Positions 1-6,811 of a DNA stretch of 64,000 nt are shown here, piece by piece. Source of the stretch: a virus; IMG/VR virus record IMGVR_UViG_3300025154_000068, positions 1 to 64,000 of that record; one strand, 5' to 3'. Positions within the stretch are counted from its first letter, which is position 1. Each line of letters opens with the position of its first letter. A model generated the notes under the pieces. It worked only from the letters and a program-made list of their open reading frames with translations, had not been told where the DNA came from and did no database searches. The position numbers were made by a program, and so were the translations under genes.

Positions 1-3
1 CGA

Positions 4-145
4 AATGTCAACGGCAGGTAGAGAGCGAGCGACGTTCTGCAATGACAACGAAACACGGGAAGCGATTGAAGGAGGAGGCATGTTGAAGGAATCAAAGAAG
101 CGAGAGAGTGAACCAGATGACAACGAAAGCACCGATAGCGCGCTG
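4..145 (+). repeat. 37-38 nt periodic dual-repeat array (TIGR-like), truncated by window start
   Basis: ATGWCAACGR-like motif at 5, 42, 80 (degenerate) and 117 alternates with AGCG(A)NNGA-like motif at 24, 61, 99 and 137; 9-10 nt variable segments lie between motifs. Confidence 0.7.
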
Positions 146-1114
146 ATCACAGTCAAGAAACTGGAGCGCGCCAAGGCGAAGCGTAAGCAAGAACGCCGCA
201 TCGCGGCACCGTCTAGCGATGACCCCAAGGTGGAACTGCGCCGGCTCGTTCAGGAGCATTCTAAGCGGACGCGTGGAGCGGTTGCCATGGAGTCGATGGG
301 CACCGCGAAGAAGGCTCGTGTCGACATGCCGCAGCGTGGACTGAAGAAGGGCGACAAGATCCCTTGCGCCTACCCCGACGACATCGCGGACGAGATGATT
401 GCCATGGCAAAGGCGATGAAGGGTTCCGCGTCGGACCTCGAATCCCCGATTCGGGCAAGCCTCAAGAAGTGCCCGATCTACACGACGTTTCTTCAGCACG
501 TCTACGGATTCGGCGTGGTGTCGAGTGCCTACCTGGTCGCCATGATCGACATCCATCACGAGGACGAGACCGGACGCCAACTACGCCCCTCCGGCCTGCG
601 TCGGTTCTGCGGATACGCCGTCATGAATGGCAAGTTGGAACGTCCCACCAAGGGACAGAAGCTCGGGTACAGCACGGAACTTCGAACGCGCATCTGGCAG
701 GCGTTTCAGGCCATGCGCAAGAACGCGGCGAAGTGCACGAACGACGCCCCGTATGGCGTGACAACCAAGTACCTCGACATCTGGTACAACGCAAAGCAGG
801 GAGCAACCACCGCCGGAATGCAGCCCGGGGCGGCGGACTCCAAGGGGCGCAATAAGGCGACCGACGTCTTTCTTCTGGACCTGTACACCGTTTGGCGGTC
901 AATCGAGGGGCTCGAATCGTGGCCTTCCTACTACGAGCAACACGTCGGCGAGGGACATCGAGGGTGGCACTTGCTCGGGTCCAATGGCCCGCAACGGTTC
1001 ACTGTCGACGCCGCGCTTCTGCTCGCTGGGGACCTCTCTCCGCGGCCGCTGAACGAGTCTCGATCGTGGAAGCTCGCAATCGAGGAGGCAATCGATGAGC
1101 ATCGAGGCGTTTGA
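80..1114 (+). CDS. Nop-domain / IS110 C-terminal-like RNA-binding protein, TasA-like (no nuclease domain)
   Basis: GGAGGAGG RBS at 71-78; coiled coil then PIYTTFLQHVYGFGVVSSAYLVAMIDI, PSGLRRFCGY, KGQKLGYSTELRT and FLLDLYTVWRSIEGL; no DEDD RuvC N-terminus. Confidence 0.75.
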   Translation: MLKESKKRESEPDDNESTDSALITVKKLERAKAKRKQERRIAAPSSDDPKVELRRLVQEHSKRTRGAVAMESMGTAKKARVDMPQRGLKKGDKIPCAYPDDIADEMIAMAKAMKGSASDLESPIRASLKKCPIYTTFLQHVYGFGVVSSAYLVAMIDIHHEDETGRQLRPSGLRRFCGYAVMNGKLERPTKGQKLGYSTELRTRIWQAFQAMRKNAAKCTNDAPYGVTTKYLDIWYNAKQGATTAGMQPGAADSKGRNKATDVFLLDLYTVWRSIEGLESWPSYYEQHVGEGHRGWHLLGSNGPQRFTVDAALLLAGDLSPRPLNESRSWKLAIEEAIDEHRGV

Positions 1115-3227: not shown

Positions 3228-4382
3228 ATGCGAGTAGTGATAACAGCGGACACACACGCAGACGAAAGGCGTAAGTGGTCGGAGCATTGCCGCGTGCTCG
3301 ACTGGATGGCCGAAGACATGCGCACAAGGCAAGTCGACCTGGTCTGTCACGGAGGCGACATCTACGATGGAGTGTCCACGCCCACAGGGCGCAAGTACGT
3401 CGCCGACTGGATCCAGCGCGTGGCGGAGTTCGCGCCGATGTGCCTCGTTGCAGGCAACCATGATCGACACCTCGACGTCGAACACATTGCGCGCCTACGA
3501 ACCAAGTACCCCATCATCGCGGTCGAGCGTCCTGGCGTTCACGTCGTAGCTGGCGTCGCTGTCGCGATGCTTCCATGGCCTAGGATGGCCCATCTGCTCG
3601 CGGCCTTGGGCCGGAACGTGGGGCGCGAGGAAGCCGGGCAGGTGGCGATCGAGGCGCTCCGGTCCGTTCTGACAGGCCTTGGCGTGGAGCTCGCGCGTCA
3701 TGCCGGCCCGCGCATTCTTCTCGCCCACGCCATGGTCGACGGGTCGAAGACGGATAGCCGACAGCCAATCATGGGAGCTGACCTTACCGTGTCGATCGCG
3801 GATATGTCGCTCTGCAAGGCCGACATCATGGTCGCTGGGCACGTGCACGCTGAGCAGGAGATGGCGCACGCTGGAGCCGACCTCGTCATTCCCGGATGCC
3901 CCTACCACCGCACGTTCGGTGAGCCTGGCCCGACGAGCTACGTGGTTGCGCACTTCGCCCCCGACAGGACCGCAGAACCGCCGACATGGGAGCGAATCTC
4001 TACCCCCGCGACGAAGATGCTGTTGCTCGATGCCGAATGGGACACCGAGAGCCAGGCACTCCTGGGGCACCACCGGTTCGTCGACGTGGAAGGCTGCGAA
4101 GTTCGCCTTCGCTACACAGTACCGAGCGACCAGCGAGAAAGCTCCAAGCAACGCGCGAATGAGGCCGAGGAAGCCTTGAAATCGCGCGGCGCAGTGAGCG
4201 TCAAAGTAGATGAGGTCGTGCTGCCCAAGACCCACGCCCGGGTGCCAGAGGTGGCGGAAGCCAAGACCCTGGAGCAGAAGCTCCGAGCGCTGTGGAAGGC
4301 GCGCGACCCGGAGTTGGAAGAGGCCCGCAAGTCGAGGCTGCTCGGCATGGCGGATGAACTGGAGAGGGAGGCCGCGACGTGA
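3228..4382 (+). CDS. sbcD: SbcD/Mre11-like metallophosphoesterase nuclease
   Basis: DTH, GDIYD, GNHD, LLAH and GHVH motifs; overlaps the following SMC ATPase. Confidence 0.9.
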   Translation: MRVVITADTHADERRKWSEHCRVLDWMAEDMRTRQVDLVCHGGDIYDGVSTPTGRKYVADWIQRVAEFAPMCLVAGNHDRHLDVEHIARLRTKYPIIAVERPGVHVVAGVAVAMLPWPRMAHLLAALGRNVGREEAGQVAIEALRSVLTGLGVELARHAGPRILLAHAMVDGSKTDSRQPIMGADLTVSIADMSLCKADIMVAGHVHAEQEMAHAGADLVIPGCPYHRTFGEPGPTSYVVAHFAPDRTAEPPTWERISTPATKMLLLDAEWDTESQALLGHHRFVDVEGCEVRLRYTVPSDQRESSKQRANEAEEALKSRGAVSVKVDEVVLPKTHARVPEVAEAKTLEQKLRALWKARDPELEEARKSRLLGMADELEREAAT

Positions 4383-6811
4383 GATACCGATCCATCCGCT
4401 TTGTAGGGATTCGACCGTACGCGGGCGAAGTGTTCCTCGACCTCGACTCGATTCCCGGACCGATCGTCGCGATCCACGGACCGAATGGGTCTGGCAAGTC
4501 CACGTTGTGCGAGATGCTCGCGACCGGCGCCTACCGTCGCACGCCAACGCATGGCCGCATCGTAGACATGGCGACGACCCGCGACGCCTACGTGGAAGTT
4601 GTGGTGGAAAACGGACAGACCTACACCGTGCGGCACAAGGTCGACGCAGTGAGCCGCAAGGGAACCTCCGAGGTCACTGGGCCCGCCGGCCCGGTGTTCG
4701 ACACGGGCAAGTCCAGCGACTTCGACGCGTGGGCGAAGGTGGTATTCCCTCCGCGCGAGGTCTACTTCGCCGGAGCGTTCTCTGCGCAGGAGTCCGACGG
4801 GCTGTTGAAAATGGACGGCTCTGACCGCATGCGAACGCTACTGAGAGCGATCGGGTGTGAACGCTACGAAGTACTCGCCAAGATCGCACGAGACAAAGCG
4901 GCTGCCGTTGCCAAACGGCTCGACGTACTCGCTGCGCGAATTGCCGATGAGCAGGTTCGAGGGCTTGACGTCGCGGTGGCTGAGCAGGAGTTGGTGGAAG
5001 CACGTGCCCGGGCAGCGGGGGCTGATGCCGAGCTTGAACAGGCAAAGGCCGAACTCGCGCGGGTCGAGGAGGAGGCACGGATCGCTCGAGAAGCGCGCAC
5101 CGCTTTCGAGACCCATGTCGACCGGACAGCGATGCTTCGCAATCTGCAGTTGGAGGTTCTCCAACGCATCGGCGACCTGGAGAAGCGCATTGCGAACAAC
5201 CGCATGGTGCTCGACGACGCAGATCGAATCCGTGCCGCCGTTTCCGATATCCCGACGCTACGCCAGGGCATGGAAGACCTTCGAGTCAAGTGCTCCGACG
5301 CAGCCCACGACGTCCGAGCCTTCGAGACGGAATCGCTCTCATGGCTTGGCCGATCGAAGGATGCCGAACGCCGGGTCACGGCAGCCAGTGCACGCGTCCA
5401 GTCTGCTCGGTATAGGCTCGCTGGTCGGGAAGCCGTTGAGCGCGCCGTGGCCGAACTGGAGCGCTTGCGCGATGCCGTTGGGGTTGCGGCGCAGGAGCAT
5501 CTTGCGGCAACGGAGGCGTACGAGGCGCTTGCAAGTCAGACGGTGGCAGGCCTTGGCGAGCGTATCGATGGGCTACGCGGTGGGCTGCAACGAATCGCGG
5601 ACCTCCCCGCTACCATCGAGAATGCGCAGGATATCGCGGCGCGTTCGTTGGACGCCGACGATACCGCAGCACGCCTTGCCATCGAGTTGCCACGTCTCAA
5701 GATCGAAGCGGTCGAGCGTTGGGACAAGGCCAGAATCGCTCTGGACAAGGCGCGAAGCCAACTCAGCACAGCCGAGGCCACCGCCTCACGTGCTCCCGAT
5801 CTGGACCTCGCACAGCAAGACCTTGACGCCGCGCAGGTCGACGCGCGCACGGCAACCGAGGAAGCGTTGGCACACGTTCGTCGTTCGAAAGATGCGCAGG
5901 CGAAGGCGGACGCAGCATCAAATAGCATGCACGCTCTCGGGGATGCGGTGTGCGCGGCGGAAGACCGGCTCGCCAAGGCTGAGGCCCTCGCCGCCCGCGC
6001 CAAGCACATCGACTCCGCACAAGCACGCATCGAAGAACTCGCCCTTCAGCTCGCTGCCGCGAACGCCGATCGCGAGCGCATCGAGGCCGACATGGAGGCC
6101 ATGGACCGCCCCCCAGTCGTTCCGCCGACGCCCAACGTGGAGCCTTCCACACTCGCCCTTCGACAAGCCGAACGCGCTGCCAGGGACGCCCACGCCGCGC
6201 CGCCAGTCCGAGAGCACGCCCTGAAGCAAGCGACGGAGTCGGTCGCCAAGCTCTACGCCCTGGCAGCAGAGCGCGCCGCCGTTGAGACGGAGATCGGCGA
6301 CTGGACAAAGCTGGCCGAGTCCTTGCGCGACCTTCAAAGCCTCGAGATCGATGCGGCCGGCCCCGAGCTCACCGAGCTGACGAACGATTTTCTGCGCTCC
6401 TGTGTTGGCGACAGGTGGTCGGTCTCGTGGGAGACGACGCGCATGGACAGCAAGGGCAAGAGGGAACTCGACGACTGCCACATCTCGGTGCTCGACACGG
6501 AGGAAGGGCGCGAGGCAAACGGCAAGGAATTCTCCCCGGGACAACGCGCTGTCGTGGAACTCGGGTGCTCGCTGGCGCTCACGACGTATTCGTGCCGAAA
6601 GCTGGGCATCGAGCGGCCCACCCTTGTTCGCGACGAGTCAGACGCGCCGATGACGGAGGAGGCGAGCGCGGCGTTCATCCCGATGCTCCGCCGGGCGGCG
6701 AAGCTCATCGACGCCGACAAGGTGCTCATCATCACCCACCGGCCGAACACCGTGGAGCTCGCCGACGCTCGAGTGCTCGTCGCCGATGGGAAGGTCGAGG
6801 TGCAGGTATGA
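4379..6811 (+). CDS. sbcC: SbcC/Rad50-like SMC ATPase
   Basis: Walker A GPNGSGKST, long coiled coil, signature FSPGQ, Walker B LVRDES, IITH. Confidence 0.9.
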   Translation: MRYRSIRFVGIRPYAGEVFLDLDSIPGPIVAIHGPNGSGKSTLCEMLATGAYRRTPTHGRIVDMATTRDAYVEVVVENGQTYTVRHKVDAVSRKGTSEVTGPAGPVFDTGKSSDFDAWAKVVFPPREVYFAGAFSAQESDGLLKMDGSDRMRTLLRAIGCERYEVLAKIARDKAAAVAKRLDVLAARIADEQVRGLDVAVAEQELVEARARAAGADAELEQAKAELARVEEEARIAREARTAFETHVDRTAMLRNLQLEVLQRIGDLEKRIANNRMVLDDADRIRAAVSDIPTLRQGMEDLRVKCSDAAHDVRAFETESLSWLGRSKDAERRVTAASARVQSARYRLAGREAVERAVAELERLRDAVGVAAQEHLAATEAYEALASQTVAGLGERIDGLRGGLQRIADLPATIENAQDIAARSLDADDTAARLAIELPRLKIEAVERWDKARIALDKARSQLSTAEATASRAPDLDLAQQDLDAAQVDARTATEEALAHVRRSKDAQAKADAASNSMHALGDAVCAAEDRLAKAEALAARAKHIDSAQARIEELALQLAAANADRERIEADMEAMDRPPVVPPTPNVEPSTLALRQAERAARDAHAAPPVREHALKQATESVAKLYALAAERAAVETEIGDWTKLAESLRDLQSLEIDAAGPELTELTNDFLRSCVGDRWSVSWETTRMDSKGKRELDDCHISVLDTEEGREANGKEFSPGQRAVVELGCSLALTTYSCRKLGIERPTLVRDESDAPMTEEASAAFIPMLRRAAKLIDADKVLIITHRPNTVELADARVLVADGKVEVQV

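Follow-up and report, generated by a model that had tools for sequence, protein, structure and literature searches.

The window analysed here, the first 64,000 nucleotides (nt) of the IMG/VR virus record IMGVR_UViG_3300025154_000068 (G000; 83,034 bp, linear, 85% complete according to CheckV), opens on the end of an array of short repeats that runs into a gene for a Nop-domain protein. On one strand, a gene for a helical protein of 156 amino acids (aa), an array of 10 or more units of about 37 nt, and tasA follow one another, and together they very probably make up a TIGR-TasA system of the dual-repeat type, carried by an uncultured phage from groundwater. The TIGR-Tas family was published in 2025, and 20,096 tas loci and 4,126 dual-repeat arrays had been catalogued by 2026 (bioRxiv 10.64898/2026.09.09.750476). 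The features are listed below in window positions, except that those outside the window are given in positions of the whole record and of its terminal segment L002 (record positions 81,459-83,034).

Record 82,385-82,855 (L002 927-1397), plus strand, outside the window: partner gene, 156 aa, all-helical, directly upstream of the array and ending in it.
Record 82,815-83,034 (L002 1357-1576), plus strand, outside the window: units E1-E6, the last 220 bases of the viral record.
5-41, plus strand: TIGR unit W1, with edge ATGTCAACGG (5-14), spacer A CAGGTAGAG (15-23), loop AGCGAGCGA (24-32) and spacer B CGTTCTGCA (33-41).
42-79, plus strand: TIGR unit W2, 38 nt, with edge ATGACAACGA, spacer A AACACGGGA, loop AGCGATTGA and spacer B AGGAGGAGGC (70-79).
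80-116, plus strand: degenerate unit W3, with edge ATGTTGAAGG, spacer A AATCAAAGA, loop AGCGAGAGA and spacer B GTGAACCAG.
117-~145, plus strand: terminal partial unit W4, with a perfect edge ATGACAACGA, spacer AAGCACCGA and decayed loop AGCGCGCTG, and no edge after it.
80-1114, plus strand: tasA, the most likely open reading frame (ORF) for a nuclease-free, TIGR-associated Nop-domain protein of 344 aa (public gene call P0001).
929-958, plus strand: candidate Tyr/His loop for processing of the guide precursor (pre-tigRNA), with Y309/Y310 (929-934) and H318 (956-958).

The array is built like those of FpTIGR-type systems (PMC12045711), which are phage-borne, co-oriented beside tas, and composed of two alternating repeats of 9-10 nt, spacers of about 9 nt, and units of about 36-37 nt; dual-repeat TIGR arrays in general have repeats of 8-12 nt, spacers of about 9 nt and units of about 36 nt, usually 5-15 in number. 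Here, the units number at least 10 and measure 37-38 nt, apart from a single one of 33 nt, and they comprise a 10-nt edge, a 9-nt loop, and spacers of 9-10 nt. The repeats of E1-E6 were those of the window units (edge ATGACAACGA with at most one mismatch, loop AGCGAGCGA), and a similarity search matched window positions 5-65 to the terminal bases of the record. The edge of W3 was altered at 4 of its 10 positions and had lost its terminal CGA, while W4 lay within the tasA coding sequence with its own ATG out of the tasA frame. A preliminary description of the window had read four units of 37-38 nt, which we recovered exactly as quoted (5-41, 42-79, 80-116 and 117-~145). It had also held that only the end of an array was visible and proposed extending the sequence leftwards, and this was borne out in that six further units sit at the opposite end of the record, so that the array straddles an assembly break.

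Taken alone, the window units are statistically weak, with a lag-37 self-identity of 0.33 (z = 1.6) and no repeat called by Tandem Repeats Finder in the four units, the weak periodicity arising because unit 2 is 38 nt long and units 3-4 are degenerate. At the E-unit end, Tandem Repeats Finder returned a period of 37, and lag-37 identity reached 0.67, compared with a genome mean of 0.26 (standard deviation 0.044) and 0.41 at the next-best site in the genome. Moreover, a composite motif, consisting of the edge and the loop (each with at most 2 mismatches) separated by any 9-10 nt and searched on both strands, occurred six times, always on the plus strand and at one or other end of the record, with no occurrence in the rest of the genome on either strand, against a mean of 0.33 in 40 simulated genomes, which supports the two alternating repeats and 9-10-nt spacers of the preliminary description. 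Mean pairwise identity was 0.82 for edges and 0.59 for loops, while spacers (0.30 and 0.29) were at background.

Edge and loop both terminate in CGA, an ending that the preliminary description had singled out, and these locus-specific repeats thereby differ from those of TasR arrays, which end in CCA. By our own reading, both repeats might be written as (U/A)G-N4-CGA, their 5′ ends (AUG in the edge, AG in the loop) being only loosely alike. The array RNA had no match in Rfam and no significant fold (z = -1.6); the latter fits the dual-repeat type and is unlike the stem-loop type.

With regard to the assembly break, contigs from three sequencing runs extended beyond the record end, by 7,786 nt (run X4), 82 nt (X7), and 186 nt (X8). 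Specifically, a Logan contig from one run begins within E5 and overruns the record by 7.8 kb, so that the DNA must continue there. When viral and metagenome contigs were searched for exact matches to unit-specific 27-29-mers, no contig joining the two ends was recovered. The layout of a related phage record (G005), which wraps around its own ends, supports the two ends of the present record as neighbours. That record, described as 100% complete and linear, is split inside tasA and has TIGR units at both ends (L021 1-1301; L025/L026 99,034-100,608). Assemblies thus seem to break at TIGR loci, inside the array in the present record and inside tasA in G005. Additionally, protein cluster P0027 includes a 99%-identical copy of the partner on an 86,911-bp contig, 3.9 kb longer than the present record, and this contig may span the array junction.

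That a Nop-domain Tas gene adjoins the array, as the preliminary description proposed, was supported by PDB profile, NCBIfam and Foldseek searches. The protein sequence on its own matched 9MTY (TasR; E = 9.2e-9), the TasR-tigRNA-DNA complex structure of Faure et al. 2025 (PMC12045711), and TasH (E = 0.008), and a profile of 25 homologues matched the same two at E = 2.5e-24 and E = 6.5e-13, respectively, with nothing else of relevance in the PDB. It was also matched by NCBIfam NF052498, 'TIGR-Tas system RNA-guided endonuclease' (TIGR_Tas_endo; E = 2.8e-17, model positions 39-215), and in PHROGs by phrog_4285, an IS110-like family labelled 'transposase'. An AlphaFold2 model (predicted local distance difference test, pLDDT, 84; predicted template modelling score, pTM, 0.77) comprised a disordered N-terminal tail, two long helices forming a coiled coil (16-42 and 49-74), a short strand region, and a helical Nop domain. 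The structure search suggested in the preliminary description returned the Tas fold with IS110 recombinases behind it: the best 10 Foldseek matches in the PDB were all TasH or TasR chains (E of about 1e-7 to 2e-6, 16-20% identity in the structural alignments), followed by a weak match to IS621 (E = 2.6e-3) and ISCro4, and then by noise. The combination named there as counter-evidence, an array with no more units to the left and a protein with no Nop-fold match, was thus not observed.

The preliminary description had further assigned the protein to the nuclease-less TasA type. Residues 1-98 of the model contained only the disordered tail and the two long helices, no HNH or RuvC family was matched in Pfam or in the AlphaFold2 model, and the protein has no room for one; lacking a nuclease domain, it is TasA rather than TasH or TasR. 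The gene is intact and retains all 20 columns that are invariant in the 25-homologue alignment. If translated from an alternative in-frame start, the ATG at position 5, the protein would have 369 aa, the reading frame being open from the window edge (position 2). At E<=1e-30 the TasA clade held 144 cluster representatives, and at E<=1e-10 it held 1,450, with lengths of about 300-450 aa. A scan of genome contigs for TasA relatives found none. In six other family members (P0003, P0005, P0007, P0010, P0017 and P0024) the Nop domain carries an insertion of about 35 residues that resembles a zinc ribbon (C-x2-H ... C-x2-C; alignment columns ~355-390) and is absent from the TasA of this phage.

Among characterized systems, the closest parallel in architecture is to the dual-repeat TIGR-TasA of Flavonifractor plautii (FpTIGR; PMC12045711), likewise a solo Nop protein with a coiled coil and no nuclease. 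The Nop fold and detectable sequence homology are shared with SpTasH of Salicola phage CGphi29 (9W03, 9W04, 21KL) and with TaTasR (9MTY), but, unlike these two, the present TasA is without HNH or RuvC, and binding without cleavage would be expected. With the IS110/IS621 recombinases and archaeal box C/D Nop5 it has in common a Nop-type RNA-binding domain and a two-guide RNA logic (PMC12045711). It differs from IS110/IS621 in having no DEDD domain and no single bridge RNA, the guides being in a tandem array, and from the box C/D small nucleolar ribonucleoprotein in having no fibrillarin or L7Ae partners.

The array overlaps the genes on both of its sides. The conserved block of TasA begins 'AP..DDP..ELR' near nt 200, and from nt 83 to nt 230 no ATG, GTG or TTG lies in frame, so that translation must begin inside the array, at ATG 80 or ATG 5. 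The ATG at 80-82, which belongs to W3, is most likely the start codon, and it is preceded by a Shine-Dalgarno sequence, GGAGGAGG, at 71-78. In this arrangement, spacer B of W2 doubles as the tasA ribosome-binding site, the degenerate edge of W3 supplies the start codon, and the first ~22 residues of TasA, which are disordered in the model, are encoded by W3 and W4. The ATG of the perfect edge at 117 was rejected as a tasA start; it is out of frame and meets a stop after 9 codons. At the other side, E1 forms the last 13 codons of the upstream gene, the stop codon of which is the TGA within the ATGA of the E2 edge. Four related phages (G001-G004) likewise had an upstream array that overlapped the tasA start or stopped within ~10 nt of it, and purine-rich decayed repeats formed a Shine-Dalgarno-like sequence there. 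To the extent that the upstream array was readable, this placement was shared by all five relatives.

Unlike FpTIGR-type arrays, this array lies only upstream of tasA and overlaps both flanking genes. No terminator follows it because it runs into tasA. Promoter and terminator scans found no such site separating the array from tasA, and as a promoter would not fit between them, the two are most simply read as being co-transcribed. Guide processing is probably coupled to TasA translation, since the array ends on the tasA start site. If TasA cuts edges, a cut in the W3 edge would leave the tasA coding sequence without its ribosome-binding site and perhaps without its AUG; on another reading, the four substitutions of W3 may shield the start from cutting. 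Xu et al. 2026 (bioRxiv 10.64898/2026.09.09.750476) already described TIGR units inside tas coding sequences, more rarely for dual-repeat arrays, and suggested a link between maturation and translation. The guide units in the disordered 5′ end of tasA resemble theirs, with the difference that here the ribosome-binding site and the start codon are themselves array sequence. The array-embedded start is therefore an example of a known intragenic arrangement and not a discovery.

SpTasH matures its own guides using catalytic Y289 and H296, located in a flexible loop at the C-terminal end of the Nop domain, a dyad that is said to be conserved among dual-repeat systems (PMC13421893). A candidate counterpart in the TasA studied here is a flexible segment near the C-terminus in which a Tyr and a His are conserved. 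Its Y309 aligns with SpTasH Y289, Y310 is at least 90% conserved among the 25 homologues, H318 is invariant within an invariant G-x-x-H-x-G motif, and the segment has low pLDDT and is flexible (model residues 291-296). These residues follow the 369-aa numbering and correspond to Y284/Y285 and H293 of the 344-aa protein. Self-processing of guides by TasA is likely, given the aligned Tyr, the invariant His nearby, and the flexibility of the segment.

A member of the partner family, detected with a hidden Markov model, was directly upstream of the array or of tasA in 6/6 phage genomes (E = 1e-71 to 2e-7). Close relatives of the partner also adjoin TasA homologues elsewhere, in a pair of neighbouring NCBI locus tags (WC683_16185/16190) and on a 3.9-kb contig shared with P0003. 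The partner model was all-helical (pLDDT 88), and no function was assigned by Pfam, PHROGs, NCBIfam, PADLOC, PDB profile search, Foldseek (best E-value 1.3) or the ESM Atlas. The gene order recalls the TasParB-TasA operons of Faure et al. 2025 (fig. S14), in which a second gene lies upstream with a dual-repeat array between. Unlike TasParB, the 156-aa, all-helical protein gave no ParB signal in Pfam (six members, E<=10), the PDB profile search or Foldseek; it is not the published TasParB.

A scan of viral contigs with the TasA family alignment yielded six loci from five distinct phage types, at each of which a 37- or 38-nt periodic array adjoined tasA on the tasA strand. Across the six genomes (G000-G005) all well-formed units were on that strand, with only three low-quality matches elsewhere. 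The TasA proteins of these genomes were only 32-44% identical. The repeat sets differed between G000/G001, G002/G003, G004 and G005. The five upstream units of G001, the TasA of which is 43% identical to ours, had exactly the edge and loop of G000 and no spacer in common with it. In G002 and G003 (edge GAACGAATGACA, loop GAGCGAGCCA), arrays flank tasA on both sides with 11 + 17 and 6 + 16 units, respectively, and the downstream array of G003 terminates in a terminator hairpin. G004 had an upstream array (edge GAGCGAATGCGA, loop GAGCGAGCGA), and in G005 (edge GAACGAAGNGA, loop GAGTGGACGA) the order was partner, array, tasA, array. The last three bases of edge and loop covaried, being CGA/CGA in G000, G001 and G004, and ACA/CCA in G002 and G003. 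The box C-like ends of the two repeats are reported to covary because they bind a symmetric dimer (PMC12045711), a rule with which the 3′-end covariation seen in these sequences appears to fit. Searches of cultured phages gave only distant portal matches (Meiothermus, Thermus and Myxococcus phages) and, in a Microcystis phage, one TasA-like match of 28% identity. The sequence itself occurs in groundwater and soil metagenomes. In G002, a GC-rich hairpin with the tRNA T-arm-like sequence GGTTCGAGTCC stands right after the last unit of the downstream array (L004 5740-5790), and ARAGORN called no tRNA in it.

The arrays also retain traces of how units arise. E3-E5 contain a perfect two-copy tandem repeat of 37 nt with 100% identity (record positions 82,908-82,986; L002 1450-1528). 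The register of this duplication runs from loop to loop, so that three successive units carry the spacers (A1,B1), (A2,B1) and (A2,B2), the middle unit being a chimeric guide, that is, a new pairing of two existing half-guides. The same pattern was present in G002 (L004 5452-5565), where the successive spacer pairs are (AGCGCGCC,AAAGTCCG), (ACGGCCAT,AAAGTCCG) and (ACGGCCAT,AAAACCGA), and where spacer A of the next unit, ATGGCCAT, is one base off ACGGCCAT. More broadly, among the six genomes, 15/1,880 same-type spacer pairs within genomes differed by at most one mismatch, as opposed to 2/7,050 between genomes, a ~27-fold enrichment of near-identical spacers; the count for A-versus-B pairs within genomes was 1/1,880. 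These patterns are direct evidence that at least some units arise via local duplication and then diverge. The shared half-sites could be functional, and there could be another route of spacer acquisition besides duplication. Published work calls both the origin of spacers and the natural targets of TIGR systems open.

Based on these comparisons, the following mechanism can be proposed. The array would be transcribed together with tasA, and a TasA dimer would bind each unit via its Nop domains, with one protomer on the edge and one on the loop, anchored by the common terminal CGA and the leading (U/A)G. TasA would then cut the precursor in the middle of the edge with the conserved Tyr/His loop to give tigRNAs of ~37 nt. 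Each ribonucleoprotein is predicted to bind a DNA site of 16-18 bp, where spacer A would pair with one strand and spacer B would pair, over the neighbouring stretch, with the opposite one. The complex would be expected to block transcription or replication rather than cut, since it has no nuclease; TasA proteins are RNA-guided transcriptional repressors in vivo (Xu et al. 2026, bioRxiv 10.64898/2026.09.09.750476).

Several observations weigh against a functional TIGR-TasA system. Regarding the protein, a Pfam search of TasA gave no match at all, the NF052498 score (63 bits) is under the curated equivalog cut-off of 100, and H318 is two alignment columns off SpTasH H296, making the equivalence inexact. 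Regarding the array, several units are imperfect, with the E3 loop shortened to AGCGA and W3 and W4 degenerate. Furthermore, if the two record ends abut directly, the distance from E6 to W1 is 42 nt instead of 37 and spacer B is ~14 nt, meaning that there is either missing sequence or an irregular junction unit. The runs that hold the sequence are all groundwater or soil metagenome DNA, with no RNA run listed. Finally, the search for spacer-pair targets proposed in the preliminary description found none in the phage's own genome or among the six phage genomes. The sites sought had spacer A and then spacer B in reverse complement along the same strand, a geometry that we derived from the published 8-nt 3′ overhangs and 'C - 5' rule; the other arrangement was searched as well, one sentence of PMC12045711 reading opposite. 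In the own genome, with both arrangements and gaps of 0-2, the best sites matched at 14-16/18, equal to shuffled spacers. When 95 guides of the six phages were compared to all six genomes, there were 15 matches at 15/16 and none at 16/16, and control spacer sets gave 12, 18 (plus one at 16/16) and 3 matches at 15/16. In large collections, by our estimate, an 18-mer would be expected by chance several times and a 16-mer more than 100 times. Thus, these sequence comparisons give no signal of self-regulation or kin-targeting among the six genomes, and the targets probably belong to the host or to unrelated mobile elements rather than to this phage or the five sampled relatives.

The missing targets, together with the truncated E3 loop, the degenerate W3 and W4, and the position of E1 within the 3′ end of the upstream ORF, are what one would see if this were a decaying, non-functional TIGR remnant, the array eroding into its flanking genes and TasA being kept for other reasons or on its way to being lost. 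We nevertheless consider decay improbable in light of the intact tasA with its 20 invariant columns, the 6-8 well-formed units, the perfect 37-nt duplication, which indicates recent array turnover, and the persistence of the partner-array-tasA order in six genomes despite the low TasA identity noted above. Less probable again is that the 37-nt repeats act as DNA, as iterons or a centromere-like site bound by the upstream helical protein, with tasA merely a neighbour. In its favour, the helical gene adjoins the array in each of the six genomes, a linkage to ParB-like genes has been published for some TasA loci (PMC12045711), and assemblies break here in two of the phages; yet variable spacers alternating with two repeats are no trait of iterons, all units in the six genomes are on the tasA strand, the partner has no ParB or other DNA-binding family signal, and arrays of exactly this architecture have been processed experimentally into Tas-bound RNAs (PMC12045711).

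It is hardly credible that the locus is a remnant of an IS110-family transposase with its bridge-RNA region, or that the repeats encode the N-terminal tandem repeat of an unrelated protein. The 'transposase' label of phrog_4285, the presence of PF02371 in one homologue, and IS621 and ISCro4 among the weaker fold matches would suit the former, but the protein has no N-terminal DEDD/RuvC-like domain, and Tas structures are ahead by ~4 orders of magnitude in Foldseek E-value. The ORF being open from position 2 would suit the latter, but the array runs on across the upstream gene's stop codon, and repeats with a period of 37-38 nt, which is not divisible by 3, cannot encode a peptide repeat. CRISPR-Cas was also considered and rejected, the locus having two alternating repeats of 9-10 nt with 9-nt spacers instead of a single repeat of 25-36 nt with spacers of comparable size and cas genes, and PADLOC returned no match for either protein.

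The locus, then, is a genuine TIGR-Tas locus, but of an already published type, and it adds no new principle. The partner gene, the chimeric guide made by duplication, and the array-embedded translation start are modest additions. TIGR-Tas systems are compact RNA-guided DNA binders, free of a protospacer-adjacent motif, that are of current biotechnological interest, while what TasA does in its native host is unsettled. In this context, the locus offers a clean natural case in which a recent 37-nt duplication built a new guide from two old half-guides. A broader proposal is possible, though we regard it as doubtful: that in this TasA clade the helical upstream protein is an obligatory component, that arrays renew by loop-to-loop duplication of one unit and point mutation, without acquisition of foreign DNA, and that processing by TasA sets its own translation as a feedback. 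If both the duplication route and the partner prove general in the clade (144 representatives at E<=1e-30), they would bear on array evolution and on TasA regulation.

Two features were noted downstream in the window. An acidic ORF of 47 aa, rich in Leu and Ala, lies at 1095-1238 with a 20-nt overlap of the tasA stop; tblastn matched it in none of the five related phage genomes. At 3228-6811, 2 kb downstream of tasA, lies a pair of SbcD-like (Metallophos) and SbcC-like genes, which is not conserved beside tasA in the relatives and is therefore probably an ordinary phage recombination module.

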